NCBI GenBank assembly: GCA_049241065.1
Contig: JBMLRK010000446.1
Coordinates: forward strand, 1,431 to 51,664
Direction of reading: 5' to 3'
Length of the DNA stretch: 50,234 bases
Source of the DNA: Spirosomataceae bacterium
Lineage (GTDB): Bacteria > Bacteroidota > Bacteroidia > Cytophagales > Spirosomataceae
In this document: in pieces, positions 18,165 through 39,816 of the stretch
Numbering within the stretch: the first letter of the stretch is position 1
How the letters are laid out: each line of letters begins with the position of its first letter
The notes under the pieces: model-generated
The model's input: only the letters and a program-made list of their open reading frames with translations
Told to the model about the DNA's origin: nothing
The model's database searches: none
Position numbers and translations under genes: made by a program

Positions 18165-18191
18165 TTAAAATTCTCTGATTATTGACTCACT

Positions 18192-18226: not shown

Positions 18227-18267
18227 ATAAGAGAATTTCATCTAGCGACATTCTAAAATTTACTCAA

Positions 18268-22750: not shown

Positions 22751-23473
22751 TTAACGACTTAATACTTCGTCAATCAAGCCGTATTCTTTTGCTTCTTCCG
22801 CACGCATCCAGTAGTCACGATCTGAATCTCTTTCGATTTCTTCGAACGATTTACCTGAATGTTTTGCCAAGATTTCGTACAATTCTTTACGAATTTTAAC
22901 GATTTCACGAGCCGTGATTTCAATATCACGAGATTGACCTGATGCACCACCAGAAGGTTGGTGAATCATGATACGAGCGTGTTCTAAAGCCGAACGTTTT
23001 CCAGCAGCACCACCAGCCAACAATACAGCACCCATTGAAGCAGCCAATGAAGTACAGATAGTAGCTACGTCAGGACGGATATAGTTCATGGTATCGTAGA
23101 TACCCAAACCAGCATATACCGAACCACCAGGGCTGTTGATATACATCATAATATCCTTCTTCGCATCTGTTGACTCCATGAACAATAACTGAGCAACAAT
23201 AATATTAGCCATATAATCATCTACAGGAACACCCATAAAAATGATTCTATCCATAATTAAGCGAGAGAAGACATCAATCTGAGCAAAACGCATTGGACGT
23301 TCTTCAATGATATATTGAGTCATATCCTCTACAAATGGGCGGCTTGTACCACCAAAGTTTGCAGCACCATCACCCGCCATGTTCATATATTGATCCACTG
23401 CCAAGCCGTTCAACCCTCTATGATGAACAGCATATTTTCTAAATTCTTCTGAGCTTAATTCTTTTGGAAACAT
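22751..23473 (-). CDS. clpP: ATP-dependent Clp protease proteolytic subunit ClpP
   Basis: 240 aa. INSPGGSV, catalytic Ser in AASMGA, His in MIHQPSGG and Asp in DRDYWM. Confidence 0.95.
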
Positions 23474-23603
23474 AATTTGTCTATCGTTTTAATTCTATAA
23501 TCGTAAAACTGTTTATTTCATAAAAAGGTTCTATTCACCTATCACAAAAGCAAATATGCAAAATGATTGAAATAATCCTAACGAAATTGCCTTTTTTTGT
23601 ATA

Positions 23604-23643
23604 AACAAAAAAAACTCCCTCTATGTTTTAGGCATGAGGGAGT
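23604..23643 (-). terminator. Rho-independent terminator ending the FAS1/SusCD operon
   Basis: Minus strand: ACTCCCTC-atgcctaaaacata-GAGGGAGT followed by 8-9 T. It lies 43 nt after the last SusD stop. Confidence 0.8.
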
Positions 23644-23685
23644 GGTTTTTCATTGTTAATTAGTACAAGCGGTTAAAAAGTTTTC

Positions 23686-25554
23686 TTACATTTTGAAAGG
23701 CAAATACCAGTTAGCAGGATCCATCAATTTGGCACGAACAGCCTCCGCATTTGGATTATTAGCTTTTTTCAATTTGTTATATACTTTATCTGCCAAGAAA
23801 GCAGGGTCATTTCTACGAAGAGCAACACGAACTAAATCTCCCCAACGGTGTCCTTCAAAAGCTAATTCTAAAGCCCCCTCTGTCACGATAGCGTTTTCGA
23901 TAGACTCCGTATTCATCGTTGCAAAAGCATCTGTATTTTTCACGTATGCTCTCCCCCTTACTCCAAGATTATCACGCCAAATACCACGATAACGAGGAAT
24001 ATCCCCAAGTCTTCCGTCGAATTTATATACAGGATCGACATCACCCATTCCATGTACGTTTGTCACATCAGTTCCACTGGGCACAGGGAAGTTGCCTCTG
24101 ACTCCATTATTCAGCAAAGCATAAGCAAGCTGTGAACGTTGATCTCTGTTAGATGCTTCTGCTATTTTGAGGTGAATATTAGCGGCTCTGTTCAAGAACC
24201 AGCGACCATTTTTACGGTAAATACTTGAGGTCAAGTAAGAGTTTAAACCCACTGTTCCATCCAATGAAGGATTTAAGTAGTAATATAAATGCTTAGTTGC
24301 CACGTAGTCAGCACTACCATTGATTTTTTTACAAGACATTATTTTTCTTGCATCATAGGGAATATTATTAATCTGAGTTTGAGCATCCCAAAGAGCGATA
24401 GCTTCATTTGATGGTTTCAATAAATAGCTTCCGCCTAAAGTAACAGGTGAAAATAACTCTACAAATGAATTATCTGGCGAAAATCTGCTATCAAAAGGTA
24501 ACATCCACAACCATTCAGGGTCATTACCAATGAATGATGTAGCATTAGAACCAGCAGATGAGCGATCTCTCGAAAATATTGAACGCCAGTTAAAATTATT
24601 ATTGTCTTGTAAAGTAGAAGCGTCTGCCACATTGGAGTACCCTACAGTGATTAAACCCATCCCAGAAGTCATGGCAACTGCTGTCAGCTTATAACAATTA
24701 CCAGAGGCATTTAAGTTTGGCTCTAATACCTCCCACTCAGTCCCTCCATTTAGTTTTTCTACTCCCACAGCATTTCTATATTGAAATACTGCTTTACGAT
24801 ATTGATTGTCCCAAAGGTATAAATCACCTAATAAACAACGTTTGTTAATAAAAAACAAACGAGACGCATAGGTATCTAAGCCATTCAAAACCAATGGATT
24901 TTCAGCAGTATATGGGTCTAAGTAGGCACTTTGTACGGAATGAATTTCCGCAGCACCTGGAATCATTTCCATGTCTTTGATTAATGCTTTGACTAAGGCA
25001 GGTAATGACAATCTAGGTAAATCAACAACCGCTCTAGCATCTTTCACAGTTTCCAGTGCCTCTGTCACATAAGGAACATTACCGAAGTGCATTCCTAACT
25101 GTAAATAGATGTAAGAACGCAAGGTAAGAATATCGGCTCTGCGTTGCTCGTATTGCTCACTAGTCAAACGTCCTGATTCCTTCATAATTTTGAAGTTTTT
25201 CAGGGCGTCATTAGTGTTTAGAATAACTTCATAAAAAGGACGAGGATTAGCATAAGGATTACCCTCTTTAACATCATGGTTATTGATTTCTCTCAAAGCC
25301 ATATCTGCATTACCAGTTACATCCAACAAATCAGCTCTTAGCTCATTAAGAACGGTATGTTGCTTAGAAAGGGCTACAAATTTACCATAGATACCAATGA
25401 TGGCAGCATCGGCATCTTTAACATCTTTGTAAGCTTGTGAGGCAACAAGCACTTCTTGGGCTGGCTCTTCAAACAGTGAAGAACAACTAGACGCTCCTAC
25501 TAATAGTCCAGCAACTCCCAATGAAAAAAATATTTTTGTGAACGTTGATTTCAT
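23686..25554 (-). CDS. SusD/RagB-family lipoprotein (long, 622 aa)
   Basis: Lipoprotein signal (GASSC). C-terminal SusD hallmark LELAFEGHRWGDLVR. Directly downstream of a SusC gene. Confidence 0.85.
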   Translation of the reverse strand: MKSTFTKIFFSLGVAGLLVGASSCSSLFEEPAQEVLVASQAYKDVKDADAAIIGIYGKFVALSKQHTVLNELRADLLDVTGNADMALREINNHDVKEGNPYANPRPFYEVILNTNDALKNFKIMKESGRLTSEQYEQRRADILTLRSYIYLQLGMHFGNVPYVTEALETVKDARAVVDLPRLSLPALVKALIKDMEMIPGAAEIHSVQSAYLDPYTAENPLVLNGLDTYASRLFFINKRCLLGDLYLWDNQYRKAVFQYRNAVGVEKLNGGTEWEVLEPNLNASGNCYKLTAVAMTSGMGLITVGYSNVADASTLQDNNNFNWRSIFSRDRSSAGSNATSFIGNDPEWLWMLPFDSRFSPDNSFVELFSPVTLGGSYLLKPSNEAIALWDAQTQINNIPYDARKIMSCKKINGSADYVATKHLYYYLNPSLDGTVGLNSYLTSSIYRKNGRWFLNRAANIHLKIAEASNRDQRSQLAYALLNNGVRGNFPVPSGTDVTNVHGMGDVDPVYKFDGRLGDIPRYRGIWRDNLGVRGRAYVKNTDAFATMNTESIENAIVTEGALELAFEGHRWGDLVRVALRRNDPAFLADKVYNKLKKANNPNAEAVRAKLMDPANWYLPFKM

Positions 25555-25580
25555 CTCAAAATTATAATAAAACTGTGTGA

Positions 25581-25615
25581 AATAATTCAGTAGAAGTAGC
25601 TCCTACTGAATTATT
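25581..25615 (-). other. Perfect 13-bp hairpin in the SusC-SusD intergenic gap
   Basis: AATAATTCAGTAG-N9-CTACTGAATTATT. It lies 20 nt after the SusC stop and 26 nt before the SusD ATG. It shares ATTCAGTA(A)G.AGC / GCTACTT..ACTGA words with the hairpin at 18192..18226. Confidence 0.7.
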
Positions 25616-25635
25616 AGGATTTGATACTGAGTAAA

Positions 25636-28600
25636 TTACAACCCTAGTTTGATACCTAAATGGAATGACTTCTGGATTGGCTCTAGCATATTATCTACTC
25701 CTTGTCCATACAATGAATTAGTAGCACTAAATTCAGGATCATAACCCAAGTAATTCGTCAAGGTAAGTAAGTTATTAGCTGTTCCATAAATTGTTACAGA
25801 CTTTAAATACTCTTTGTTCAAGTTGAAATTGTACGACAATGTTAACGTTCTCAAGCGAGCATACGAACCATCTTCAATCCAGCGAGTAGAGAAACGTCCA
25901 TTTTGTAGTGGGTCACCAAAATTTGCTCTTGGAATATCCGTCATTTGTCCTGGAGTTCTCCATCTATTAATCAGGGCATTTGTTTGATTTTCATAAGAAG
26001 CTCCTGATTCTAATTTTCTTCTCGTATAATTATAAACTTCGTTACCATATACAAAACTTACAAGGGCATCCAATGACCAATTTTTATAGGTAATTCGGTT
26101 ATTTACACCACCATAGAAATCAGGATTCGGATTACCAATCACTTGATTGTCCTTTTCATCAATAATTTTATCCCCATTAACATCTACGAAACGTACGTCT
26201 CCTCCCTTAAAAGGCATATATGAGCCATTTGCTTGCAAGTTTGTTAAACCTTCTTGTGCAGCTTCAGCATCTGTTGCATAAACACCTTTTGCCACTGTTC
26301 CATAAAATACATTAGGAGCTTGTCCAACAGCCGTCACATAACTTCCACCCGTAAAGGCAGCATTGGGAGCGACAAAGTTGTCTGGCAACTGATCTACTTT
26401 AGTTTCTGATTTAGCGATTGTAAGTCCTAAGTCCCATTTAACCTTCTGTTTGTTAATCAATTTTAGGTTCAAAGTAGCTTCAATTCCAGAAGTACTCATC
26501 GCTCCCTCATTGGTCAATAAATAAGAAGTCAAGCCCGATGCAACAGGTGCTTTCGTGTAAACAAGCATATCCGTCGTTTTATGACTAAATACATCAACAC
26601 TTAAAGACAGACGTTGCTTTAATGTAACCAAATCAAACCCTGCATTTAGCTTCGTTACTGTTTCCCATTTCAAAGCAGGATTCGCTACAGCTCCTACAAC
26701 CAACCCTTGTATTCCGAGTAAATTCTGCCCTGTGAAGTATTTTTGATAGGCATAATTTCCAATATCATCGTTTCCAACACGTCCAGCAGAAGCTCTTAAT
26801 TTCAAGAAATCTACGCCTGAATTACGCATAAACTTTTCTGAAGAAAGTACCCAAGCCAAGGTAGCAGAAGGCATAAAAGCAAAAGTAGAACTTCCTATTT
26901 TTACTGCTTCAGAAGATTCAATTTGTTTTCCAAAACGAGAAGACCCATCTAAAGCTGCATTAAGACTAACGAAGTATTTCCCTGCGTAACCATAGTTTAC
27001 GTTCAAATAAGTGTTCAACCAATTGTAGCTTCCTACTCCGCCCTTTATCTGATTATAAAGAGGAGAAGTATTTTGAACAAAGGTAATTTCGTCGATAGCG
27101 GCATTATACGAATAAATCAAGTCTTGTTCGGCAGAAGAACTAATAAATCGTACTCCTGTTCTACCAGAAAAATCATGCTTATTGGCAAATGTCTTGTTGA
27201 AACTTAGGTAAGTTTCGTTATATAAATTAAAAACCGTTTTAGCTAAAGCACTTGCTCCACGTTCTGCTAAAATATTCTTTAATGTATCTGGCACTAATCC
27301 ATAACTAGGGATAAAGTGATTCTCTGTGATTTTATCAAAAGTAACCGCAATGTTAGTTCCCAAATCCAAAGCGGCAGAGAGTTTATATTTAAAATCTAAC
27401 ATTCCTTGAAAACGGTATGAGCGGTTAGCTCCTATCACATTCTGAGCAGCTACAACAGGGTTTCCAACATTAAACACGTCCGAATCTGTAAAACGAGGAG
27501 AGAATACTCCTTCCACATTACGTTCTTTATCCGTTAAAAACGGTGATTTCACTAATGCTAGATAAATCGGGTTTGTTTTTAAAGCCAAGCCCAAATCTCT
27601 ACTTGTCGATTCATTATAGCCAAAACTTAGATTGGCGGCCGCAGTAAGACGACGAGTAAGATTTAAATCGGCATTAAATCGAGTACTATATTTCTCTAAA
27701 GTAGAACCTTCGAGGCTATTTTTATTCGACATATAATTCATCGACAACGCATATTTTGCGATGTTATCCCCCCCCGTAATGCGGAGATACATATTGGCAA
27801 AAGGACGAGCTGCGTTAATCTTTTTTTGCCAATCCGTTTCGTTATGATTAGCATAATAATTAGGACTGCTAGGACTATCATTCATATATTCCTGTGCTTG
27901 TATCTGACTGTTAGATAATCCTTGAGAAACCATCAAGTCATTCAAATACGTTCTAAAATTACCTGCATTCATTACGGGTAACGATGCCGGTGTGGTGTTT
28001 ACTCCACCATACATAGCAAAATCAATTTTTGTACCCAATTCTTTAGCACGAGAAGTCGTAATCAAAATGACCCCATTAGCAGCTTTAGTACCGTATAATG
28101 CCGCCGCAGAAGCATCTTTCAAGACCGTAATATTGGTAATATCACGTGGGTCAATATAGCTAAAAGGATTATCAAAGAAATTATTGATTGTAGATTCCCC
28201 ATAGATGGCAGCATCATAAATAACCCCATCCATCACTATCAATGGACGGTTTGTTCCTTGAATTGAATTATAACCTCTTAAGTTCAAAAATGCACCGCTA
28301 TTGGCAGTTCCTGAACGACGAATCGCTTGTAAACCTGCAACTCTACCCTGCACGTACGTATCTGGAGTTTCTGTGATGGCAGACCAGTTATCAGGCAGCG
28401 ATAGACTTCCTGCGGCATCGGTACGATAGTAATCAGAAACGGACGTGGTAGGTAGTTTATACGTATTTTCAATACCATCAAAGTCCGAAACAGCAATACG
28501 TAACGTCTTTTGTCCTCTAATGGCTACGTCATAGGATTTATAACCATAACCTTCTACTCCTAATACGACTTGATCATTAGGTACTTTTATCTTGAAAGTA

Positions 28601-28869
28601 CCGTCCTCTTTTGTAATTACAGCACTTAGATCACGATAGAATATACGTACTCCAGAAATAGGCTTTTGGGTACTAGCACTCACGACTACCCCTTCTACTT
28701 CTAAAGAAAAACCTTTCTTTGGGTTCGATGGTACCGTTGTTTGTGTTTTTTTGACTATTTTTTTCTGTTGAGCAATAGCTACTTGCCCAAAAGCTAACCA
28801 CCCTCCCATCAACACAGGTGCAATGTACGTTTTGGGAAACACTTTTATATTTTGTATGAAATACTTCAT
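25636..28869 (-). CDS. SusC/RagA-family TonB-dependent transporter (no STN domain)
   Basis: 1077 aa. Carboxypeptidase-regulatory-like domain, plug (GAFLNLRGYNSIQGTNRPLIVMDGV) and a large beta-barrel. Confidence 0.9.
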   Translation of the reverse strand: MKYFIQNIKVFPKTYIAPVLMGGWLAFGQVAIAQQKKIVKKTQTTVPSNPKKGFSLEVEGVVVSASTQKPISGVRIFYRDLSAVITKEDGTFKIKVPNDQVVLGVEGYGYKSYDVAIRGQKTLRIAVSDFDGIENTYKLPTTSVSDYYRTDAAGSLSLPDNWSAITETPDTYVQGRVAGLQAIRRSGTANSGAFLNLRGYNSIQGTNRPLIVMDGVIYDAAIYGESTINNFFDNPFSYIDPRDITNITVLKDASAAALYGTKAANGVILITTSRAKELGTKIDFAMYGGVNTTPASLPVMNAGNFRTYLNDLMVSQGLSNSQIQAQEYMNDSPSSPNYYANHNETDWQKKINAARPFANMYLRITGGDNIAKYALSMNYMSNKNSLEGSTLEKYSTRFNADLNLTRRLTAAANLSFGYNESTSRDLGLALKTNPIYLALVKSPFLTDKERNVEGVFSPRFTDSDVFNVGNPVVAAQNVIGANRSYRFQGMLDFKYKLSAALDLGTNIAVTFDKITENHFIPSYGLVPDTLKNILAERGASALAKTVFNLYNETYLSFNKTFANKHDFSGRTGVRFISSSAEQDLIYSYNAAIDEITFVQNTSPLYNQIKGGVGSYNWLNTYLNVNYGYAGKYFVSLNAALDGSSRFGKQIESSEAVKIGSSTFAFMPSATLAWVLSSEKFMRNSGVDFLKLRASAGRVGNDDIGNYAYQKYFTGQNLLGIQGLVVGAVANPALKWETVTKLNAGFDLVTLKQRLSLSVDVFSHKTTDMLVYTKAPVASGLTSYLLTNEGAMSTSGIEATLNLKLINKQKVKWDLGLTIAKSETKVDQLPDNFVAPNAAFTGGSYVTAVGQAPNVFYGTVAKGVYATDAEAAQEGLTNLQANGSYMPFKGGDVRFVDVNGDKIIDEKDNQVIGNPNPDFYGGVNNRITYKNWSLDALVSFVYGNEVYNYTRRKLESGASYENQTNALINRWRTPGQMTDIPRANFGDPLQNGRFSTRWIEDGSYARLRTLTLSYNFNLNKEYLKSVTIYGTANNLLTLTNYLGYDPEFSATNSLYGQGVDNMLEPIQKSFHLGIKLGL

Positions 28870-28897
28870 TGATTATCGATTATAAATGAGTGAAATA

Positions 28898-30322
28898 TTA
28901 AAGCACTGGTTCTAGTCTGATATAATCTAGTACTAAAGCACCTGTCGTATTAGCTGTTAAAAACATATCTAACTTCCCAAATCTTGAAGGTGTATATTCT
29001 CCTAACAGTACTTCCGAATAGTTTTTGGCTGTTAGAGCCGTTAGAGGGAAACTAGTATTCGTCGCTGTTCCCATTACTAATCTCTGAGAGATGGCAAAAG
29101 TGGCAGTTTCGGCAGTCGCAGTATTTGAGTTATACAAATCGTTTACGGCAACCCAGTACACTTTATATTTCATCACAGGCAAGTTTGGCACGGAGTAACG
29201 TAAAAAAAATCCAGATGCACCATGACCCACTACTTTAATTTGTTTGAATAGCCTACCACTTACAGGGTCTTTCATGTCTTTTATGGCAGCAATCGTAGTC
29301 GTAAGATTGGCAGGAAGTACGCTTCTACCCATAAAGTTCAACTTATCTGTTGCACTCAAATTATTATACGAAGTAGTGGTAGGAACAACTCTAAGACCTG
29401 CCCAGTTTTCACCTTCCACCACAATCGATTTAAACTTATCAGCAAGGTTAACCGTTATTTTATCCAATACATAGACTGTTCCATTACTAACAGTGATGGT
29501 TTCTTTAATTGCAGCCTTATCAATAGTTAGTTTTACCCCCAACTTTGACGTGATAGTTGCTGGCAATTTATCTGAAGCATAATCACCCTCAATCACGAAG
29601 TCCTTCAGCGTATTCAACGATGCCTCGATAGCGGTTGTATCTCCACCTGCCTTATAGTACGGTGTTAACTTCGCCACTTCTGTTGCTAGAGCAGCATCAG
29701 TCAACACAAAATAAGTATAACGCTTCGACTCGTCAGATAAATCACCAACTAGTTTTGTAATTCTGGCAATGCTATCAGCAACAAATCCATTTTGCTTGTA
29801 ACTTCCTCGTGTATTTGTGATAAACTTAGACAAGGAAGGTTTGGCTTCAATAAAACCTCCCATTGTATTCAATACTCCATTTCCTACAAATACAGAACTA
29901 ATTACTTTAACTCCATTAATCATGTCACCACTCATACTTACGTATTTTCCATTTACCAATGGGAGCAATTGCGTAGTGGTAGATGCTGCATTTACTTCGT
30001 TTGCTTGAAAAGCAATGTGATTACCGACAAAGGTTTTCAATGCACTGGTATCATTCAAAATACTCGTACTTAACGATGCCAAAGCCGTATTGGTAGGAGC
30101 ATATACCGTAAAATTTTTGGATGATGCTAACAATTTATCATATCCTGTTTTCTCCAATAATGATTTAAAGGTAGAAAGTTCAGACTGACTAGATACTTTA
30201 GCAATCAATGTTTGGGTCGCATTGTCATTAGTACTCATTAAGCGATCATCCCAGTTTTTGCAAGAGATCATACTTAACGTCACCATACACAAGACCAATA
30301 AATAAGAATATCGTATAGTCAT
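28898..30322 (-). CDS. Fasciclin (FAS1) lipoprotein: two FAS1 repeats plus a C-terminal beta-rich domain (start moved to Met10)
   Basis: MTIRYSYLLVLCMVTLSMISC lipoprotein signal. FAS1 motifs FTVYAPTNTAL...NGVLN and YFVLTDAAL...NGTVYVLDKI. The ORF-track ATG at 30349 lies inside a hairpin arm. Confidence 0.78.
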   Translation of the reverse strand: MTIRYSYLLVLCMVTLSMISCKNWDDRLMSTNDNATQTLIAKVSSQSELSTFKSLLEKTGYDKLLASSKNFTVYAPTNTALASLSTSILNDTSALKTFVGNHIAFQANEVNAASTTTQLLPLVNGKYVSMSGDMINGVKVISSVFVGNGVLNTMGGFIEAKPSLSKFITNTRGSYKQNGFVADSIARITKLVGDLSDESKRYTYFVLTDAALATEVAKLTPYYKAGGDTTAIEASLNTLKDFVIEGDYASDKLPATITSKLGVKLTIDKAAIKETITVSNGTVYVLDKITVNLADKFKSIVVEGENWAGLRVVPTTTSYNNLSATDKLNFMGRSVLPANLTTTIAAIKDMKDPVSGRLFKQIKVVGHGASGFFLRYSVPNLPVMKYKVYWVAVNDLYNSNTATAETATFAISQRLVMGTATNTSFPLTALTAKNYSEVLLGEYTPSRFGKLDMFLTANTTGALVLDYIRLEPVL

Positions 30323-30338
30323 TTTCTTTAGAAGAATG

Positions 30339-30369
30339 GTGATGCTCATAACGTTACTATGAGCATCAC
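30339..30369 (-). other. Perfect 11-bp hairpin between the two FAS1 genes
   Basis: GTGATGCTCAT-N9-ATGAGCATCAC, between the stop at 30377 and the preferred start at 30322. Confidence 0.65.
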
Positions 30370-30376
30370 GTTATTA

Positions 30377-32098
30377 TTAATAAACTAATGAACCGTCTAT
30401 GTTGTAACGAGGCGAAATTTGGTTGTCATTAACAGGGATAAACTGAATCATGTCAATATACATACTTTGAGAACCATCGTTTACGGCTGAAAATTCAAAT
30501 CGATGTTTACCTGTAAACTTCACATCAATAAATCCAACCATTTTGCCTGGGCTATTTCGATCACCTGCAAAAGTAGCAGGAGCTACTGGAGCTTGATACA
30601 TATAGTACTTCCAGCCAAGAGCCTCTAATTCTCCAGAGTTAGTAGCCACTGGTGCTTGCGAAATCATATTATGAGTTCCTATAAATGTATCATCCAAGAA
30701 AAACGATATTCCTAGATTATTCGAGCTGGCACCACTTTTAAAATATCTATAACATACCCAAACTTTGTATTTTCCTTTAGGAATGATTGTCGTATTCATT
30801 TTGTACCAAGCATTTCGCTGTGAAAATTGAGTGAAGCCCATTGGAAGCTCCACACAGTCACGATTAGTAGATACAGAACCCTGAGCTCCATTATATCTGT
30901 ACCCTAGTGGATGACTCTGAGTTTGTCCTTCACGATGTCTGGACATTCCCTCAACAGTTTCTGTAGTAAAATAATAATCCGCCTTTCTGAAAATTTTTGT
31001 AAGTCTTCTCAACTCAGGAAAATCAGTTAAGTCCCAATCGATACGAGTAGGTTTTCGAATTTTCAACGTATAGTGTTTTTGTATTTGGTGAATTACCCCA
31101 TTCATACCAATAATATCACTAGCACTACGATTTATGCCAACCCCTACTTCTCTTTGACCATTAAATACTTCATCGTTCAGTAACAGAGAGTCTCCTACTA
31201 ATGAAGTACTAACAAGGGTTGGTTCTGTTGAAACTCTTGTTAAATGCGAAGATGCTGTAACTAAATCTCCTAAATATTTTGCGTCATCAATAAGGTGAAA
31301 CGCAATATATAAGTTCAAACTATCAGCGATTAATTTTGGGTTTCCTGTTTTAGAGTACCTTGCCTTTAACTTAGCATAAGAATCAAAACCAGCTTTTCCT
31401 AGCACATCATTTGTCTCGGCAATAAGGGTAATAAATTTAGTCCCTACAGTGTTGAGTGTATCAAAATAACCTGTTTCCTTTAGTGCTTGAGTAAAAATAG
31501 AGTACTCTGCTTTTTCTTCAAGCAATTGAGCTAAGGTCTTAGTCCCTGGCACAATTACCTTATCTATGATATGAATAATTCCATTTCCAACACGTATATC
31601 ACTTTTTACAATACTACTGAACTTGTTTATCGTAACTTTAGCCCCTTCATTAGCAGATAACGTAGCTCCTGATAATAAGTACTGTCCCGCAAGAGTTGGC
31701 TTATTAATTCTACCATCTGTAAATGTTGATAAACCCAGCGTATCTCTGATTAAATGATTTTTAACGAGATTTTGAGCTTCTACCTTTGACAAATCACTCA
31801 CAGCGTTTTTACCCACCGATGAGAGATATACTTTCATTGCCTCTTCCGTTGGTAAAAAGAGGGTATAAGTACCATAAGCATTCATAAATACTTCATATCC
31901 TGCTCTTTCGACAACTTCCGAAAATTGGCTATATGATGGTGCTGTGTTTTCTTTCATATACGAATACATATTCTTGGTAGTAGTAGTATTCGGATCGATC
32001 TCTACATTATCAGTACATCGTATAAAAGCAATCAACACTCCAAAGACAAGTAAAGCACTTGCGATATATTTAGTTAGTTTTTCCATTCTGCTATTCAT
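30377..32098 (-). CDS. Fasciclin (FAS1) lipoprotein: two FAS1 repeats plus a ~230-aa C-terminal beta-rich domain
   Basis: 573 aa. FAS1 motifs YTLFLPTEEAM...NGIIHIIDKVIVPG and ITLIAETNDVL...NGVIHQIQ. The C-terminus contains KYKVWV...MYIDMIQFIPV. The start could instead be Met5. Confidence 0.78.
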   Translation of the reverse strand: MNSRMEKLTKYIASALLVFGVLIAFIRCTDNVEIDPNTTTTKNMYSYMKENTAPSYSQFSEVVERAGYEVFMNAYGTYTLFLPTEEAMKVYLSSVGKNAVSDLSKVEAQNLVKNHLIRDTLGLSTFTDGRINKPTLAGQYLLSGATLSANEGAKVTINKFSSIVKSDIRVGNGIIHIIDKVIVPGTKTLAQLLEEKAEYSIFTQALKETGYFDTLNTVGTKFITLIAETNDVLGKAGFDSYAKLKARYSKTGNPKLIADSLNLYIAFHLIDDAKYLGDLVTASSHLTRVSTEPTLVSTSLVGDSLLLNDEVFNGQREVGVGINRSASDIIGMNGVIHQIQKHYTLKIRKPTRIDWDLTDFPELRRLTKIFRKADYYFTTETVEGMSRHREGQTQSHPLGYRYNGAQGSVSTNRDCVELPMGFTQFSQRNAWYKMNTTIIPKGKYKVWVCYRYFKSGASSNNLGISFFLDDTFIGTHNMISQAPVATNSGELEALGWKYYMYQAPVAPATFAGDRNSPGKMVGFIDVKFTGKHRFEFSAVNDGSQSMYIDMIQFIPVNDNQISPRYNIDGSLVY

Positions 32099-32105
32099 TT
32101 TATGA

Positions 32106-33587
32106 TTATTTATAAAAAGGATTTTGAACTAACAATTTATTGGTGTTCATCTCCCTGAGATAAATTGGTAAATAATGACTATTAGGATCTTTCGCTTTTG
32201 CAAGAGCGGATTGTAAACGTTCAGGAGGAACGGATTTTGATAAAGCATCAGTCAAAATAGAGAGACGCTTGTAATCATTCCTTTTAGCAAACCTTAGTAA
32301 ATCAAACCAGCGTTTTCCTTCAAAGGCAAACTCCCTTGCACGTTCTTCCAGAATATAATCTAGAAGATCTTCTGTTTTAGTTGCGTCTATAGCTGTACGA
32401 GTAATTCTCGGATCACCAGCTCTGTCTCTAATTTGTTTTACCAAGAGCATTGCTTCTGCTCCTCTATTCAAAAGTGCCATAGCTTCAGCCTGTAATAATA
32501 AGACATCTGCATAACGGTACATAATAAAATTAAATGGATCAGAAGGTGCACCTTTTGAATATTTAAGAATTACGGAAGAAGTTGAGTTATACGTTCTTTC
32601 AGAGCGTTTATCCAATGAGTCTGAGAAAACAGGATCATCTGGTAAAATATCACTAGCTACAAAATCACTAGCGATAAAACGTCTTGTATTGTCACCATTT
32701 GTACCAGCTGCATTTCCGAACATGCTATAAAGCGGTGCTGTATTAAAAGCGTAAGGTGCAGTCACGTCAAAACCATGAGCAATTTCTAAAACTCCTTCTG
32801 GGGTATTACCTGAAAAAGTAGCCGCAAAGTCTGTATTCAATTTATATAGCCCCGAATCAACTACTTTCTGAGTAGCATCTGCAGCTTTCTGCGGTTGCTC
32901 CATCCATAAATAGACATCTGCTTGTAGTGTATTCACTAACCCTTTTGTTATTCTCGAACGAGTACGTTCATTCGTTGCATACGTAACAGGAATGTCAGCT
33001 TCTGCTTCTAGTAAGTCTTTTTCAATCTGAGCAAGTACTTCTGCCCCAGACGACTTTGCCAATGGAGTAAAATCTTCATCTGCATTGGTAGCATTCAATT
33101 TCAACGGAACGTCTCTGTATAACCTCACTAGATAAAAGTACATCCATGCTCTGATTGCTTTAGCCTGTGCGACATCCGCTTTCATTGTCGCTTCTTTATA
33201 CGTATCATCTAACGCTGGTACTGTCGGAGCAAATTCAATAACCGAATTACAGGTATTAATAACCGTGTAAAAAGGAGCCCACTCTGCAAATGAATTACTA
33301 GGTAAAATATTATACTCCACCAAATAATCTTCATCTACAAAAGCCCTTGGAGTTGGAGCCATCATATCTGCTCTTAACTCTCCCAAAAGCACCACTCGTT
33401 GGGGTAAGCCTGCGTTAATAATTGAGGTGTAACAACCTGTTACTGCCGAAGCAACCTGCTCTTTATTTTTCCAAAATTCAGCTTGAATAAGGCCATCTTG
33501 TGGTTTTAAGTCCAACCATGAACTACATGAACTTGGTAATAACCACACACACGCACTTACTAAAAGTAGGTATATTTTTTTTAACAT
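32106..33587 (-). CDS. SusD/RagB-family lipoprotein
   Basis: 493 aa. Lipoprotein signal (LPSSC) and hallmark ERAREFAFEGKRWFDLLR. Confidence 0.9.
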   Translation of the reverse strand: MLKKIYLLLVSACVWLLPSSCSSWLDLKPQDGLIQAEFWKNKEQVASAVTGCYTSIINAGLPQRVVLLGELRADMMAPTPRAFVDEDYLVEYNILPSNSFAEWAPFYTVINTCNSVIEFAPTVPALDDTYKEATMKADVAQAKAIRAWMYFYLVRLYRDVPLKLNATNADEDFTPLAKSSGAEVLAQIEKDLLEAEADIPVTYATNERTRSRITKGLVNTLQADVYLWMEQPQKAADATQKVVDSGLYKLNTDFAATFSGNTPEGVLEIAHGFDVTAPYAFNTAPLYSMFGNAAGTNGDNTRRFIASDFVASDILPDDPVFSDSLDKRSERTYNSTSSVILKYSKGAPSDPFNFIMYRYADVLLLQAEAMALLNRGAEAMLLVKQIRDRAGDPRITRTAIDATKTEDLLDYILEERAREFAFEGKRWFDLLRFAKRNDYKRLSILTDALSKSVPPERLQSALAKAKDPNSHYLPIYLREMNTNKLLVQNPFYK

Positions 33588-33624
33588 TGCTTTGATAAAT
33601 TATGTGTTAAATGTTTCGAACCAG

Positions 33625-36600
33625 TTAGAATGTTACTGATAATCCTAGTGTTACGGTTTTTCCGATTGGAGTTAAGGCATTATCTTCTGCAATTCTAAAA
33701 GGATCAGAACCTCTTAACTGAACCTCTGGATTTTGTCCTGTGTAGTTAGTGAAAGTAAGAAGGTTCTCTGCTGTCACGTAAGCTCTTAACGAAGACAATT
33801 GTAATCTTCTAAGTACCGATTTCGAGAACGTATAGCTGAGTGTAACCGTTTTAAGACGAACAAAAGACGCATCTTCTACGTAACGACTAGACCCTAACCA
33901 GTTATAACCAGCACTCCAGAGTGCTCTTGGTACATCCGTCACGTCTCCTTCTTTATGCCAACGTCTCAAGACTTCCGTACTTTGGTTAGATAAATCAGTC
34001 ATATTAGAAGTCGTCATACGGATTCTGTTAACAACATCATAATTGTAACGGTAGTTAAAAAATCCACTCAAACGAAGCGATTTATAAGATACTGAACCAC
34101 CAAATCCTCCTGTAAACTCTGGATTACTATTTCCTAAATACACAATGTCTTGTTCGTTGATATTTCCATCATTATTAATATCCTCATACATAGCATCACC
34201 TGGTTGGAAAATGTAATCTACTTTAGGGTAATTAAAACGCATAAATACCCCTTGTCCGTCTGGTGTTGTAATTGGCTCTCCACTCTTTCCTCTGGCAATC
34301 GTAGCAGCTTTGTCTGCATAAACCCCTTTGTACTTATATCCGTAGAATGAACCAAAAGGGTTATTGATTTTCAACAAGGTTTTATACTCGCCATTCACCG
34401 TTCCTGTTCCTCTGAAATTAGGATACTGTTCAGAAACCTCTCGTAGGATGTTACTATTATGAGCAATGTTAAAATTGAAATCTACATTCCATACTTTTGT
34501 TTTAATTGGATTTAACGTAACATTCAATTCCCATCCAATATTATCCATTGTACCTCCATTGAGGTTTGCCGTAGAATATCCGTTCACACTAGATGTTTGT
34601 AAGCCATAGAAAATTAAATCTCTCGTACTTTTCCAGTACATATCTGCGTCAATAGATACCTTTCGTTTAGGAGACACATAATTTAGCCCAAAATTTCTAT
34701 CCGTAGATTTTTCCCATCTCAAATTCTCTAGTTGAGGGTTGCCCGGAATAACCCCTCCTTCACCTAAATAACCAAAGTTGGTCGCAAAATAAGTCCCGTA
34801 ATATAGGTAGTTATATCGTGCAGCAGGAGAATTACCACTCATCCCGTAACTAGCACGAAGCCCTAAGTATTCAACAAAAGATGAAAATCTATTCATGAAT
34901 TTTTCATCTGAAACATTCCATTTCCCTGAAATAGAAGGAAAAAATGCAAAACGATTATTAGGACCAAAACGAGATGTCCCATCCGCACGTAAGCCAACAT
35001 TAAAAATGTATTTTTCCGACAATGATAAACTCGAATACCATAATGCTCCCATCGTACGAGTTTGCGAAGGGCTACTAGTAACGCCAGATGAAACTAAACG
35101 TCCATCATTTGTAACATCAGAAAGCCCTGCCGAAGCTAAATTTGGAAGCACAGCAGTCTGACCAATATTTCTAAAATCAGAAGTATTGATTACCCACATC
35201 GAGTTAAAATCTCGTTTCCGATTGCTCCATTTAGGATTATAATTAATCGTTGTTTTTGTTACTAAACCAAAAGCATCATAATCAGCTTCGGTAGCATAGT
35301 TTGATGCATTATCTGTGAATAATGCACCTGTAGCACTTTGTGGCAAAAATGACTGCGTTTTATTATTACTAATATCAAACTGGACATCAAACGTTCCTTT
35401 CCACTCGTTAGAACGAGTAATGGCATATTGTAACTGAAAGTGAGGAATAATACGCTCGGATGTTAGCGTATTGGAAGCCTGATTTACGAGTGCCACAGGG
35501 TTAAACGTACCAGGGAAACTTCCTTGACTATTGAAGCGTGGCGTAAAATAATTACTTGTCAAAAGACCTTGCTCACTGTATTCATAAATACTCATGTTGG
35601 GCATTTTTTTATAAGCCACAGCACGTACTACATCTCTGTTGGAAGTCTCTGAAGACGCATAGTTTCTGGTATTGTATGAGTGCGTAAAAGCAATATCCGT
35701 TTTAAATCTAATTCGGTCTGATACCTTATAATCTAAGTTGATACGAGTATTCAAGCGATCAAGTCCTGTTCCAATCGTTGTTCCTTGTTGACTAAAATAA
35801 CCCATAGAAGCAAAATACTGAGCCTTAGCCCCTCCTCCGTTGATTGACACGTTATGATCTTGCGCTCCTGCAATTTGCGTTATTGCACCAATCCAATTCG
35901 TATTCTGTCCGTAATTCAAGAAATTATAAACGTCCGTTGGGTCATTGCGAAATTCTGGATAGAAATTCACAGGAATTGGTAACCCAAAACGGTTTGTGTA
36001 CATTTCGGGTATCAATGTCTGGTATTGGCTACCATTCAACATAGGTATTGGACTCGGTTCTTTCGTAACACTTCCCTTAAACGTATAAGAAACTCGAGGT
36101 TTACCTTCTAATCCACGCTTTGTTTCAATTACCACTACCCCATTGGATGCACGAGCACCCCATAAGGCTGTGGCAGCACCATCTTTCAAAACCGATATAT
36201 TCTTAATATCCGAAGGTGCTACATTCAGAAGGGCAGCAAAGCCTGTTTCGTCTGCTGAAGCAAAATCAAAGTCTGAGGGTGTTGCCGTTTCATAAGGCAT
36301 ACCATCTACCACAATCATAGGATCCGCAGTACCATTAATTGAATTTGTTCCACGAATACGAATCTGAATACCTGAACCAGGTGAACCAGAAGAAGAAGTA
36401 ATATCCATACCTGCCAAACGTCCCTGCAACATTTGGTCAATACTTGTTCCTTGCATATCTTCCACAGCCTTAGCATCAATGGTTGAAATCGCTTGCGTTA
36501 AACTACGCTCACCCACATTCATTAAGCCATTACTGGTTGCTTTACCTGTTACTACAACTTCTAATAAGTCTGAACTAGCCGATTCTAAGAAAATACTCAA

Positions 36601-36894
36601 AGCTGTTCTGGACTTCACTGCTTCCTTCTTTGTCTTGTATCCAATACTCGAAAATGATAATATATGGTTAGGATTCGACATTCTAATGATGAAGTTTCCT
36701 TCCACATCAGATACTACTCCCTTCACAATACGATTGTCTCTATCATATTCAGCAACCGTTACTCCAACGACGGCTGTACTATCCTTTGCATCTACAATCT
36801 TCCCTCTCACGGTATGAGTATTCTGAGCTTGAGTCTTGATTATCCCAAGCATCAGTAAGACCATAGGTAGTAATAGTTTAATATAAAATTTCAT
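33625..36894 (-). CDS. SusC/RagA-family TonB-dependent transporter (no STN domain)
   Basis: 1089 aa. GKIVDAKDSTAVVGVTVAE carboxypeptidase-regulatory-like domain, plug (IRIRGTNSINGTADPMIVVDGMP) and a barrel ending in LGLSVTF. Confidence 0.92.
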   Translation of the reverse strand: MKFYIKLLLPMVLLMLGIIKTQAQNTHTVRGKIVDAKDSTAVVGVTVAEYDRDNRIVKGVVSDVEGNFIIRMSNPNHILSFSSIGYKTKKEAVKSRTALSIFLESASSDLLEVVVTGKATSNGLMNVGERSLTQAISTIDAKAVEDMQGTSIDQMLQGRLAGMDITSSSGSPGSGIQIRIRGTNSINGTADPMIVVDGMPYETATPSDFDFASADETGFAALLNVAPSDIKNISVLKDGAATALWGARASNGVVVIETKRGLEGKPRVSYTFKGSVTKEPSPIPMLNGSQYQTLIPEMYTNRFGLPIPVNFYPEFRNDPTDVYNFLNYGQNTNWIGAITQIAGAQDHNVSINGGGAKAQYFASMGYFSQQGTTIGTGLDRLNTRINLDYKVSDRIRFKTDIAFTHSYNTRNYASSETSNRDVVRAVAYKKMPNMSIYEYSEQGLLTSNYFTPRFNSQGSFPGTFNPVALVNQASNTLTSERIIPHFQLQYAITRSNEWKGTFDVQFDISNNKTQSFLPQSATGALFTDNASNYATEADYDAFGLVTKTTINYNPKWSNRKRDFNSMWVINTSDFRNIGQTAVLPNLASAGLSDVTNDGRLVSSGVTSSPSQTRTMGALWYSSLSLSEKYIFNVGLRADGTSRFGPNNRFAFFPSISGKWNVSDEKFMNRFSSFVEYLGLRASYGMSGNSPAARYNYLYYGTYFATNFGYLGEGGVIPGNPQLENLRWEKSTDRNFGLNYVSPKRKVSIDADMYWKSTRDLIFYGLQTSSVNGYSTANLNGGTMDNIGWELNVTLNPIKTKVWNVDFNFNIAHNSNILREVSEQYPNFRGTGTVNGEYKTLLKINNPFGSFYGYKYKGVYADKAATIARGKSGEPITTPDGQGVFMRFNYPKVDYIFQPGDAMYEDINNDGNINEQDIVYLGNSNPEFTGGFGGSVSYKSLRLSGFFNYRYNYDVVNRIRMTTSNMTDLSNQSTEVLRRWHKEGDVTDVPRALWSAGYNWLGSSRYVEDASFVRLKTVTLSYTFSKSVLRRLQLSSLRAYVTAENLLTFTNYTGQNPEVQLRGSDPFRIAEDNALTPIGKTVTLGLSVTF

Positions 36895-36938
36895 ATATAT
36901 AGTTGTTTTATGTCATAACTGAATTTAAGGATTCATAA

Positions 36939-39251
36939 TCAATTTAATTTCAAGTAACCATTAATTGAATGGAATAGACTTCTATTAGATAGATTATTAC
37001 TATTAGCAACATTCACATTGATAATTTTGCCCGTAGCATCTTTCAAGGTCATTGAAGATGCCGAGTTAGTTTCAATGCTCAACTTTAAAGGATCTCCTAC
37101 TGCATTTTTTAGTAATGTAGAGAAACTCCCAACTTCCCCTCCGTTCCGTACAGGAACAACATTCTGAATAACCACGTGAGCTGATACAAAATTTTCTATT
37201 AAAACTCTCTCTGGATTCGTAGTTGGAATGTATTTAGGGGTTTTAGTGGTTGTCCCTGTACTTGGTAATAAGCCTGCATTCATGGCTGCAAGTATCGCAT
37301 TATTATCAGGTATCATAAATGTATAAAAACTACCATTTGGAATAGATGTTATAGTAGCAGGGGTAGTTGTACTATTATACAGGTGTGACCCCTTTAAATA
37401 TTGTAAAAACTCATAGTACGGAGATGTCTTTGCACTTCCTAATTTCTCTAAATCTTGTAAAAAACCATCTGCACTCAATGATCCAACTGGAGCATAATTT
37501 AAAATATTGCTGTTAGTATAATAAGCAACGCCATTTGAACATTCTTTCTTAGATGCAATCGTTACAGGATTAGTAGCACCTTTAATACCTGTCGTAACTA
37601 TTTTATTATTATCAAAATAAATTGGTTCTCCATTATAAGCAATTACAGTTCCTTTTCCACTAAGATTTGTTAAATCACCATTATCATAAGGGACAACACA
37701 AGTTGCAACAATACGCCTCAAAGCATCCAAAACGGAAGCACCCTCTGTTACTGCCAAAGTAGTGGGATGAGTATAAGCCCACTCATTAAATGTGGCAGTT
37801 GCTCTTCCAGAATTATAAGTAAACCCTGCTGTCCTAAAGGCTTCATCACTAATCATAAACAAGGTAAACTTTCTTTTCGACGTAAGTAAAAATGGCGTAA
37901 TGTCCATATCTAATAACCTCTTCATGATTGAATATTTGGGATCTAAATAAACCCTCGAATAAACAGATGTAAAAAGTAATGGCTCATGTACTTTATTAAC
38001 ACCATAAAACAACCCATTACTCAACATTTTTTTCTCTACGACATCAGTAGAAGAATTAAAAGTATAAGGCTCTGAAAATACATTCGTTGAAGATTGTATT
38101 TTACTTGGCCAAATAGCAGAGCCATTCATGTGTGCATTCACCAAATCAATGATAATCCCTGGCGATACTAAGTCCAGCGATTTATAATGTTCAAGAACAA
38201 CCTCATCCAAGTACTTTTGTAAAACAGCATTAGTAGGTACAAACAAGCTGAATATATCCGACTGTGAATCTGTGCTATTAGGAGCACCTACGTTTTCGCT
38301 TGTTGGGCTAAACACAAGAAATTTGCCTGCTCCAGCAAGAGCATCAAATCGTTTAACATAAACCTTATCTGATAATCTTGTCTGATTATTATACTTTAAG
38401 GTCATTTGCTGATCTTCTTTGAAAAAAACAGCAAAACGCTCAATCAAATTTCTAAATAAACTATACTCGGTCTTCCCTTTTAAATAATCATCTACCGACT
38501 CACCAGGAACAGGAACATTATCCACTATGTGAATCATTCCGTTTTCAGCAAAAATATCTGCCTCTGTCACTTTAGAGTCCATCACATTGAATCCACTATA
38601 CGTAGTATTAGGGAAAAAGTAATTATAATCACTCGCAGTAAGCCCTTTTGTATTCATGAACTCATCGGTGAAATATGAAAGATGCTTATAATTTCTATCC
38701 TCTGTATTGAACGACCATACAACTCCATCTCTGTTAGAAGCATTAGTGCCAACTGCTTTGTAACGTTTACCATCAAAACCCACTTCATCATAATATCCTT
38801 TTGAAAAAGCGGTCTTTCTTCTAAAACCCAAACCAGGGAGTCCAGACTGCTCGCCACCTGTACCTGTGAGCGTTTTCTGAAAATCTCCAAGTTTATCCTT
38901 ACTATAAGCATTATAGACTAACATTCCTTGAACAAGTTTTTGTGCTTGAACAGAATCTAGCGTACTCAGACTGATACCAGCCTTTGTAAAATACTTCGCA
39001 AAAGCATCATCACTCGGTGCAAACAACGTCCAGTACCCCCCTGTGCTTAACACAGATTTGTATCCACTTTTGTCTATCACTTGTAGGAGTGTCTTGAAAT
39101 TGCCCTTGGTATCTAGCTGCTGATAAATAGGGGCGGCCAAACTTTCTGGTCGGTTGTAAATCTCTAAATTGTCTTTCGTGCATCCTATCAAAAGGGCAGA
39201 CAAACAACCTATCATTACTAAAAAATAACGTAAAGGGTATTGATACATCAT
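36939..39251 (-). CDS. Fasciclin (FAS1) lipoprotein with about four FAS1 repeats; first gene of the operon
   Basis: 770 aa with lipobox LLIGC. The repeats are marked by WTLFAPSDDAF...NGMIHIVDNVPVPG, FSLFVPTNAVL...NGLFYGVNKV, FTLFMISDEAF...NGVAYYT and YTFMIPDNNAI...INGYL. Confidence 0.8.
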   Translation of the reverse strand: MMYQYPLRYFLVMIGCLSALLIGCTKDNLEIYNRPESLAAPIYQQLDTKGNFKTLLQVIDKSGYKSVLSTGGYWTLFAPSDDAFAKYFTKAGISLSTLDSVQAQKLVQGMLVYNAYSKDKLGDFQKTLTGTGGEQSGLPGLGFRRKTAFSKGYYDEVGFDGKRYKAVGTNASNRDGVVWSFNTEDRNYKHLSYFTDEFMNTKGLTASDYNYFFPNTTYSGFNVMDSKVTEADIFAENGMIHIVDNVPVPGESVDDYLKGKTEYSLFRNLIERFAVFFKEDQQMTLKYNNQTRLSDKVYVKRFDALAGAGKFLVFSPTSENVGAPNSTDSQSDIFSLFVPTNAVLQKYLDEVVLEHYKSLDLVSPGIIIDLVNAHMNGSAIWPSKIQSSTNVFSEPYTFNSSTDVVEKKMLSNGLFYGVNKVHEPLLFTSVYSRVYLDPKYSIMKRLLDMDITPFLLTSKRKFTLFMISDEAFRTAGFTYNSGRATATFNEWAYTHPTTLAVTEGASVLDALRRIVATCVVPYDNGDLTNLSGKGTVIAYNGEPIYFDNNKIVTTGIKGATNPVTIASKKECSNGVAYYTNSNILNYAPVGSLSADGFLQDLEKLGSAKTSPYYEFLQYLKGSHLYNSTTTPATITSIPNGSFYTFMIPDNNAILAAMNAGLLPSTGTTTKTPKYIPTTNPERVLIENFVSAHVVIQNVVPVRNGGEVGSFSTLLKNAVGDPLKLSIETNSASSMTLKDATGKIINVNVANSNNLSNRSLFHSINGYLKLN

Positions 39252-39762
39252 TTACTTATTGTTTGATTTATACTAATTATTACTAGGGGGCTTGATTGTT
39301 ATTAGAAAATGAGGGGAAAGGATGAATCTAGCGTTGAATAATTTAGACTCCATCTATAATACTATATTTTCTTCATTACAGCCAATATCAATACAAGAAT
39401 AGCTGTTTTATAAGAAGAAACCATCCTACACCTTCATAGTTATTGTATTTTTTATATATGAAGTATAGCTATTGTAATAGATGCAAGTTTTATAAGAAAA
39501 GTCTGCAAAACAGGTATTTTAGAGATTTTATATTCAAATTAAAAGAGGTTTAAACCCAAAATATAATCGTTCTACATCCAACAATGTAAGGTTTACAAAA
39601 AATAGATACACAAAGTGTCTATACTTTATTAGCAAGAAATATAGATAATTTTACCGTACAAATGAATATTTTATCCTTATTCTTTCGTATTGTATTAAAC
39701 CTATATTCACCTTAACTTAAAAAGATAAAAGCATATTTTAGAATTATTTTACTTTTTTACAT

Positions 39763-39800
39763 AAAAAAAGGGGCTTAACTTACGTCAAACCCCTTTTTTT
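39763..39800. terminator. Bidirectional terminator immediately after tig
   Basis: AAAAAAA-GGGG-cttaacttacgtcaaa-CCCC-TTTTTTT, 17 nt after the tig stop. Confidence 0.7.
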
Positions 39801-39816
39801 ATGTAATTCTCAGCGA

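Follow-up and report, generated by a model that had tools for sequence, protein, structure and literature searches.

A seven-gene operon between tig and clpP

The window analysed here is a stretch of 50,234 nucleotides of contig JBMLRK010000446.1 from a Spirosomataceae bacterium, and the subject is a block of seven genes that fills positions 23474-39816 between tig and clpP. The genes are co-directional on the minus strand (open reading frame (ORF) listing) and encode, in operon order, FAS_A, SusC1, SusD1, FAS_B, FAS_C, SusC2 and SusD2, that is two SusC/SusD transporter pairs and three lipoproteins with fasciclin (FAS1) domains; the block is referred to below as the cassette. From FAS_A to SusD2 the genes are separated by 44, 37, 7, 27, 28 and 81 nt. 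The features of the cassette and its flanks are as follows.

39817..41148, minus strand: tig (trigger factor), upstream flank (Pfam Trigger_N, 107.5 bits)
39758..39806, minus strand: intrinsic terminator of tig, with A-run, 22-bp stem and U-run (-30.3 kcal/mol, z -10.75)
36939..39251, minus strand: FAS_A, 770 aa, lipoprotein with four tandem FAS1 domains (Pfam Fasciclin, AlphaFold2 (AF2), Foldseek)
33625..36894, minus strand: SusC1, 1089 aa, SusC/RagA TonB-dependent transporter (TIGR04056, CarbopepD_reg_2, Plug)
32106..33587, minus strand: SusD1, 493 aa, SusD/RagB lid lipoprotein (Pfam SusD_RagB and SusD-like_3, SusD homologues in the PDB)
30377..32098, minus strand: FAS_B, 573 aa, lipoprotein with two FAS1 domains and a C-terminal beta-sandwich (Pfam, AF2, Foldseek)
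30339..30369, minus strand: intra-operon hairpin at the FAS_B/FAS_C junction, 13-bp stem (-18.4 kcal/mol, z -6.3)
28898..30349, minus strand: FAS_C, 483 aa as called, FAS1 lipoprotein (Pfam Fasciclin, 57.6 bits)
25636..28869, minus strand: SusC2, 1077 aa, second SusC/RagA transporter (TIGR04056, 608 bits)
23686..25554, minus strand: SusD2, 622 aa, long divergent SusD-like lipoprotein (Pfam SusD_RagB, 37.9 bits)
23604..23643, minus strand: intrinsic terminator of the cassette, hairpin and U8 (-14.5 kcal/mol, z -4.3)
22751..23473, minus strand: clpP, downstream flank (Pfam CLP_protease, 260.9 bits)
21295-22548, minus strand: clpX, beyond clpP (ClpX zinc finger and AAA_2 domains)

Each of the two terminators forms a strong hairpin followed by a U-run, and a smaller hairpin is found at the SusC2/SusD2 junction (25581-25615). 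Searches with Pfam and NCBIfam identified no domain of a carbohydrate-active enzyme (CAZyme), hydrolase, lyase, peptidase, regulator, integrase or transposase in the seven proteins. These results agree with the first-pass annotation of this DNA, whose ORF coordinates (seven co-directional genes with gaps of 7-81 nt) were reproduced exactly and which had described a block bracketed by terminators, with no enzyme, regulator or mobility gene inside it. As neither a CAZyme nor a regulator is encoded in the tig-clpP interval or by the genes next to it, the window on its own falls outside the canonical definition of a polysaccharide utilisation locus (PUL).

SusC1 and SusC2 are clear members of the SusC/RagA family, with scores of 713 and 608 bits to TIGR04056 (cut-off 368) and of 51.4 and 56.8 bits to the SusC/RagA signature TIGR04057 (cut-off 46.2), and Pfam identifies both the Plug and the CarbopepD_reg_2 domain in each. 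The two share 28% identity (BLASTP). The closest solved structure to SusC1 is the SusC of 8aa4/9sje (E 1.5e-101), which we take to be the dextran utilisome of Bacteroides thetaiotaomicron. The STN domain is the mark of the SusC subclass involved in anti-sigma signalling; it was matched in none of the three SusC proteins that the window encodes, as the first reading of the sequence had also concluded, and because of its absence SusC1 and SusC2 fall outside the trans-envelope signalling subclass. Each susD lies directly 3' of a susC. SusD1 scores 114.9 bits to SusD_RagB and 58.7 bits to SusD-like_3, while SusD2 is more distant (37.9 bits to SusD_RagB, cut-off 23.1, and 27.4 bits to SusD-like_3, cut-off 27). 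A third SusC/SusD pair is present in the window on the plus strand (14919-19701), downstream of clpX and a hydrolase gene; its SusD belongs to the SusD-like_2 family, it has no STN domain and no adjacent enzyme, and its position is kept in Flectobacillus rivi (80% and 72% identity).

The three FAS proteins share 20-33% pairwise identity and all exceed the Pfam Fasciclin (PF02469) cut-off of 22 bits, with scores of 70.5 (FAS_A), 92.6 (FAS_B) and 57.6 bits (FAS_C); NCBIfam has no model for any of them. The AlphaFold model of FAS_A, built with 37 homologues (pLDDT 87.6, pTM 0.81), consists of four tandem FAS1 domains, contains no CBM-like domain (CBM, carbohydrate-binding module) and resembles TGFBIp and periostin across about 760 columns (Foldseek E 1e-21). 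The AF2 model of FAS_B (pLDDT 78.6) has two FAS1 domains, again similar to TGFBIp (Foldseek E 1e-16), followed by a C-terminal beta-sandwich at residues ~350-573; fasciclin I is also matched by these models. The four FAS1 domains that the first-pass annotation had assigned to the 770-aa protein, and the two FAS1 domains plus C-terminal domain assigned to the 573-aa protein, are thus seen in the models. For the 483-aa FAS_C the same two-plus-one layout had been proposed: the first FAS1 domain is firm (99% probability against the FAS_B family with hhalign), while the second FAS1 domain and the C-terminal domain give weak profile matches to that family.

The C-terminal domain of FAS_B has no Pfam model and was found in only 92 clusters of a 1.84-billion-protein representative library, most of them with the FAS_B architecture (~550-620 aa); many of the shorter matches are probably fragments. 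Its neighbours by fold in Foldseek are MiXBM (7ehg), CBM35 (2w1w/2w47), CBM6 (2cdo) and domain III of Cry toxins. The matches to CBM35, CBM6 and MiXBM (E ~5e-6 to 5e-4) are a likeness of fold alone; the CBM35 structure 2w47 carries an unsaturated galacturonate ligand. No Bacteroidota FAS1 lipoprotein was among the solved structures matched in the sequence and fold searches.

A lipobox cysteine followed by acidic residues is the lipoprotein export signal of Bacteroidota, and it is present in all five lipoproteins. The lipobox of FAS_A reads LLIGC|TKDN, the stretches from the cysteine in FAS_A, FAS_B and FAS_C are C-TKDNLE, C-TDNVEID and C-KNWDD, and the lipoboxes of SusD1 and SusD2 are PSSC and ASSC. 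The signal fits a surface-exposed location of all five proteins. A hidden enzyme in the FAS proteins was considered and rejected: Pfam, NCBIfam, a PDB sequence search and Foldseek with the FAS_A and FAS_B models returned only FAS1 domains and the CBM-like sandwich, with no catalytic fold. The earlier suggestion that the FAS1 lipoproteins occupy SusE/F-like positions is therefore plausible, given the export signal, the lack of a catalytic fold and the CBM-like C-terminus of FAS_B.

Insertion and allelic divergence at the tig-clpP site

The location of the cassette was examined in a ClpP scan with one genome per species, followed by tblastn of the window proteins against the loci found. The window ClpP shares 93% identity with its counterpart in Arcicella gelida, 90% with that of Flectobacillus rivi and 88% with that of Aquirufa, which places the window, as judged by ClpP, in a freshwater lineage of the Spirosomaceae (Cytophagales). 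In 27 of 33 other Bacteroidota loci tig directly abuts clpP, and three of the six exceptions have less than 720 nt of upstream sequence. The synteny of the SSF transporter gene, tig, clpP and clpX is kept, and the block is absent, in A. gelida and five Aquirufa-type genomes, the latter synteny also including an alpha/beta-hydrolase gene. The proposal that the block was inserted into an ancestral tig-clpP-clpX arrangement is thus borne out. Unlike the other Spirosomaceae loci examined, that of F. rivi (L011) shows no tig and no cassette in the 10 kb upstream of clpP, and the tig-clpP junction appears to have been rearranged there too.

Within the block no integrase or transposase was found, the junctions carry no repeats and there is no tRNA gene at the block edge; the only tRNA gene (41302-41383) lies beyond tig. 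The GC content of the block (0.36-0.39) is not anomalous relative to the adjoining 1-kb windows (0.31-0.38), of which the 0.31 window is the AT-rich intergenic stretch upstream of FAS_A. As mobility genes, repeats, an edge tRNA and a compositional anomaly are all absent, the mechanism of insertion is not visible.

Comparison with closely related contigs revealed that the cassette is far more divergent than the DNA on either side. In the locus L004, tig, clpP and clpX are 96-98% identical to the window at the nucleotide level (dS 0.10-0.20) and the tig protein is 99% identical, whereas the cassette genes are 63-74% identical and have dS values of 1.3-3, which are effectively saturated. A further type, represented by L001-L003, is ~79-84% identical across the cassette (dS 1.1-1.8), with a dS of 0.24 for tig/clpP. 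Identity changes abruptly, within a few hundred bases of either end of the cassette. There are at least three allele types at this site; L169, an L004-type contig with tig and clpP at the same site, was left out of the comparison. Because near-identical genomes have cassette alleles whose synonymous divergence exceeds that of the flanks more than tenfold, the alleles, as dated by synonymous change, are much older than the genomes that carry them. The dN/dS ratios between cassette alleles (0.07-0.19) indicate that the genes are under purifying selection and still functional. Between the window and L004 the proteins diverge unequally: identity is 54% for FAS_C, 59% for FAS_B and 63% for SusD1 but 72-79% for the SusC barrels, with 79% for SusC1. 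The likely cause is either that alleles have been replaced by homologous recombination in the conserved flanks or that alternative alleles have been maintained over long periods. The pattern resembles that of ragAB or O-antigen-type loci.

The perfect 13-bp stem at the FAS_B/FAS_C junction (30339-30369) covers the annotated ATG of FAS_C, so the true start is probably Met10, at position 30322; the L004 orthologue begins downstream of its hairpin. Hairpins of different sequence occur at the same spot in the L001-L003 and L004 alleles and are absent from distant relatives. The hairpin may act as an intra-operon RNA stabiliser or attenuator.

Related cassettes, pectin genes and the upstream repeat

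Cassette contexts were collected from nine look-ups by protein identity and from 80 metagenome loci obtained with a FAS_B profile. All 42 loci that cover the cassette from FAS_A to SusD2 (Chitinophagales and Cytophagales) have the seven genes in identical order, and every partial locus is a sub-string of that order. Full-length homologues of FAS_A and FAS_B, ~40% identical, are present in the Chitinophagaceae (Niabella, Filimonas, Pinibacter, Flavisolibacter, Segetibacter, Cnuella, Ferruginibacter) and the Spirosomaceae (Arcicella, Flectobacillus, Emticicia, Fibrella), the latter including a FAS_A homologue of 87% identity labelled Flectobacillus sp. The cassette is widespread in soil and freshwater Bacteroidota, and all lineages retain its gene order, its domain architecture and many invariant residues. 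Since the two SusC proteins (28%) and the three FAS proteins (20-33%) are so divergent from one another and yet stand in a fixed order, the sequences indicate that the pairing of two SusC/SusD (SusCD) sets with FAS proteins is ancient and has been retained. The Spirosomaceae also carry the cassette at other sites, namely in Arcicella lustrica (L005) and between Tex and a cNMP-binding gene (L171). In the A. lustrica locus a LytS-type histidine kinase is encoded upstream and a Mutator-family transposase (18433-19305) directly downstream, the sole mobility gene seen beside any copy of the cassette.

The strict conservation bears on what the FAS proteins do. FAS1 is a classical adhesion fold, FAS_A aligns over its full length with the extended proteins TGFBIp and periostin and has no CBM-like domain, and the lipoproteins might therefore be mainly adhesins for plant or algal surfaces, or membrane spacers, leaving SusD1 and SusD2 alone to set transport specificity; spacer roles have been proposed for other PUL lipoproteins, e.g. 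DUF1735 (PMC11216935). We regard this as improbable, as the three FAS genes are interleaved with the transporter genes and conserved in every locus, which argues for a stoichiometric role in the complex, and FAS_B carries the CBM-like module.

To identify the genes beside the cassette, ORFs in its visible flanks (2-4 kb) were clustered and the cluster representatives annotated, and the results were tallied for 53 loci that do not belong to the window lineage. Of these, 43 (81%) are flanked by a pectin-type CAZyme or a rhamnose gene, with a pectin-type CAZyme in 38 and a rhamnose gene in 10. The most frequent are glycoside hydrolases (GH) of the GH88/GH105 type (14 loci) and a GDSL esterase with a galactose-binding-like domain that resembles the pectin acetylesterase PaeY (10-11 loci). 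Other neighbours include GH2, GH106 alpha-L-rhamnosidase, the polysaccharide lyase (PL) PL11 rhamnogalacturonan lyase, GH28, GH39, GH43, GH51 and GH115, a PL22-GH106 fusion, a PelZ-like pectate lyase and a DUF4450/rhamnosidase-like protein. The rhamnose-catabolism genes encode L-rhamnose isomerase, FGGY kinase and LutABC. In L122 and L123 the gene directly upstream encodes a hybrid two-component regulator, and L138 and L165 contain a LacI-like gene. With these CAZymes and regulators the orthologous cassettes fall within the canonical definition of a PUL. No peptidase or lipid-metabolism gene recurs beside the cassette among the flank clusters.

Distant loci have in common the motif CAGGATgcttCAGGATaGTT upstream of FAS_A, a tandem direct repeat with its two halves one helical turn apart. 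The family form of the repeat is CAGGAT-N4-CAGGATnGTT, followed 16-17 nt on by a TAnTTTTA box, which resembles the -7 promoter box of Bacteroidota. It lies 150-450 nt upstream of FAS_A, and extra copies are found directly before neighbouring GH105, GH28, PL11 and SusC genes or facing divergently transcribed ones. Across 1.33 Mb of cassette loci there are 48 copies of the core YAGGAY-N4-YAGGAY, against a single copy in an equal length (1.33 Mb) of ClpP control loci, and the 20-mer consensus with up to two mismatches was found in 33 of 51 upstream regions, compared with 0 of 1020 shuffles and no reverse complements. This distribution points to an operator for a factor that would co-regulate the cassette with pectinases. 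The repeat is absent from L122 and L123; that both loci with an adjacent hybrid two-component regulator lack it suggests that regulation has been swapped around a constant core. The Arcicella-type loci (L005, L171) have an intermediate variant, CAGGATGGTgCATGATGGTT. The corresponding features of the window are listed below.

39419..39438, minus strand: candidate operator TATGAAGGTGTAGGATGGTT, a degenerate copy of the repeat with four mismatches to the family consensus
39394..39401, minus strand: -7-like box TATTCTTG, 17 nt after the repeat (read from the sequence)
39354..39479, minus strand: island of near-identity between the window and L004, 126 nt (alignment), which holds the candidate operator and the -7-like box

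Outside the island, the intergenic and coding DNA is 57-70% identical to that of L004, and the island is probably the promoter/operator region. If TATTCTTG acts as the promoter box, the 5' untranslated region would be ~135 nt long. Several other candidate elements were rejected. Further operator copies in the window (35 matches with up to three mismatches, 30 expected) are not significant, and the only near-perfect copy of the core, CAGGAAGAAACAGGAT (44923-44938, plus strand, one mismatch), is inside a NUDIX hydrolase gene and probably a chance match. A promoter for an extracytoplasmic function (ECF) sigma factor (CAGGAC ... CGTCTA in L007 and L008) was discarded, as CGTCTA is not conserved while the tandem CAGGAT and the -7-like box are. 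The leader gave no Rfam match at gathering scores and chance-level matches at E up to 1, and folds no better than shuffled sequences, with no stable structure; a riboswitch, as found in the class of riboswitch-controlled vitamin and cofactor importers, was thus not seen in the window leader.

In the remainder of the window, ~60 residues precede the Clp protease domain in the clpP ORF (the Pfam match begins at residue 65); homologues from the Cytophagales align from residue 1-10, those from Firmicutes and other phyla from residue 45-67 only. An ORF of 1080 aa (7402-10644, minus strand), flanked by an aldehyde-dehydrogenase-like gene and an FAD oxidoreductase gene, has no significant Pfam match and faint matches to Peptidase_MA_2 and DUSP.

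A proposed pectin-type import core and its relation to known systems

We propose that the locus supplies the core functions of binding and import in a pectin-type PUL, directed at a glycan like rhamnogalacturonan I (RG-I) and detached from its enzymes, and give this a probability of about 0.6. Three surface-anchored FAS lipoproteins would bind a polymer or oligosaccharide at the cell surface: FAS_A as a rod of four FAS1 domains, FAS_B and FAS_C with FAS1 domains followed by a C-terminal beta domain that is CBM-like in the FAS_B model and a weak profile match in FAS_C. The two paralogous SusC/SusD pairs would then import the fragments, energised through TonB. Transcription would start ~135 nt upstream of FAS_A, at a promoter overlapped by the tandem-repeat operator, to which a regulator encoded elsewhere would bind. 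The cassette would have moved as a unit into the tig-clpP gap, with the degrading enzymes and the regulator encoded at other sites, and divergent alleles of it would be exchanged there.

The first-pass annotation had instead proposed an unknown, possibly non-glycan, ligand, and had taken the lack of an enzyme or regulator in or beside the operon as the cue. A non-glycan importer would need no enzymes; its ligand could be a peptide or protein, like that of RagAB, or else hydrophobic and held by FAS1 domains in the manner of the AstaP carotenoproteins, two of which (8c18 and 22iy) are among the sequence and fold matches of the FAS proteins. Solved FAS1 proteins bind proteins or carotenoids, and SusCD systems for peptides, vitamins and bacteriocins have been described (PMC11467351, PMC11817032). 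The neighbours of the related loci speak against such a ligand, which we judge very unlikely: 43 of 53 lie beside pectin or rhamnose genes, the repeat is common to the cassette and the enzyme genes, FAS_B has the CBM-like C-terminal fold and neither peptidase nor lipid-metabolism genes recur. Two of the orthologous loci also have a hybrid two-component regulator directly upstream. Because orthologous cassettes are accompanied by enzymes, the repeat and, in these two loci, a regulator, the absence of enzymes is a feature of the genomic placement in this lineage and not of the system.

Several observations weigh against the pectin-type import core. There is no adjacent CAZyme in any of the three Spirosomaceae contexts (tig-clpP, A. 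lustrica and L171), so the link to the substrate is borrowed from loci of the Chitinophagaceae type, at 35-55% protein identity. In large PULs the cassette is frequently one among two or three SusCD sets, and its target might therefore be not RG-I but another glycan that occurs together with it. The FAS1 domains known to us bind proteins and carotenoids, not pectin, and the CBM-like fold matches of FAS_B have low TM-scores over the whole model and no support from sequence. The operator copy of the window is weak when taken alone, as its level of four mismatches is reached by 3.4% of shuffles, and no other convincing copy was found in the window.

The first of these points could also mean that the Spirosomaceae cassettes, once separated from the pectin enzymes, came to serve a different polysaccharide of freshwater origin, acidic or rich in rhamnose, e.g. 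algal or cyanobacterial exopolymers, with the alleles tuned to different substrates. The divergence between alleles, which is greatest in the lipoproteins FAS_C, FAS_B and SusD1 and lower in SusC1, is in keeping with this, as is the alteration of the operator relative to the Chitinophagaceae consensus. Set against it are the gene order, architecture and invariant residues kept in all lineages and an operator still recognisable as the same repeat, and nothing positive points to another substrate; we consider the shift unlikely.

Within the pectin-type reading, the FAS1 domains could themselves be the pectin (rhamnogalacturonan)-binding modules, FAS_A being a new class of surface glycan-binding protein (SGBP) and the two SusCD sets with the three FAS proteins forming one hetero-oligomeric utilisome. 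This more specific proposal is tentative and rather doubtful. If it is true, the fasciclin fold would for the first time have a defined carbohydrate ligand, and this could bear on why plant fasciclin-like arabinogalactan proteins such as SOS5/FLA4 affect pectic mucilage (PMC4965450). The cassette is a tractable bacterial system in which to search for FAS1 ligands.

Pectin turnover by Bacteroidota of soil, rhizosphere and freshwater is ecologically large and understood almost only from gut Bacteroides, and the candidate operator would allow the pectin regulon to be predicted from sequence. A SusCD locus without enzymes can be an accident of placement rather than a sign of a non-glycan substrate. 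A 16-kb operon for surface proteins that has deep alleles between near-identical flanks suggests selection by phages, bacteriocins or the substrate niche.

SusC, SusD, FAS1 and the logic of PULs are kinds already known. A full-text literature search found no paper that links fasciclin proteins to SusCD systems, and no description was found of FAS1 accessory surface proteins for SusCD, of the two-transporter, three-FAS1 cassette or of its operator, which are new as far as that search extends.

The closest known arrangement is the RG-I PUL of B. thetaiotaomicron, which has two SusC/SusD pairs (BT4164/65 and BT4168/69) with the SGBP BT4167 numbered between them (PMC8002723). Like this PUL, the cassette has two SusCD pairs with binding-lipoprotein genes between them, and the cassette family is associated with PL, GH105, GH28, GH106, GH2 and acetylesterase genes (PMC8002723), an enzyme set that agrees with the one described for RG-I breakdown in B. 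thetaiotaomicron. Unlike it, the window encodes neither enzymes nor a hybrid two-component sensor next to the cassette, and an extra four-FAS1 gene leads the operon; the use of FAS1 proteins in the binding slots may be a further difference. As with SusE/SusF and the levan and dextran SusCD utilisomes, the lipoproteins are encoded beside susCD and, by analogy, would be expected to sit on a SusC2D2 core. They have no relation in sequence or fold to the immunoglobulin-like/CBM tandems of SusE/F, the fold of the cassette proteins being FAS1, and the cassette always has two SusCD pairs where known utilisomes have one.

FAS_A has the same four-FAS1 tandem layout as TGFBIp and periostin, and the single-FAS1 proteins MPB70 and Rhodobacter Fdp have the same fold. 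It differs from TGFBIp and periostin in being ~12% identical to them, lipid-anchored and encoded in a transporter operon, in its extra loops of 40-60 residues per domain and in the lack of EMI or accessory domains. In its allelic variation the cassette resembles ragAB of Porphyromonas gingivalis, whose several deeply divergent SusCD-type alleles occupy one chromosomal site in genomes that are otherwise alike (PMC11817032); ragAB consists of one pair, which imports peptides, whereas in the cassette 16 kb and seven genes are exchanged.

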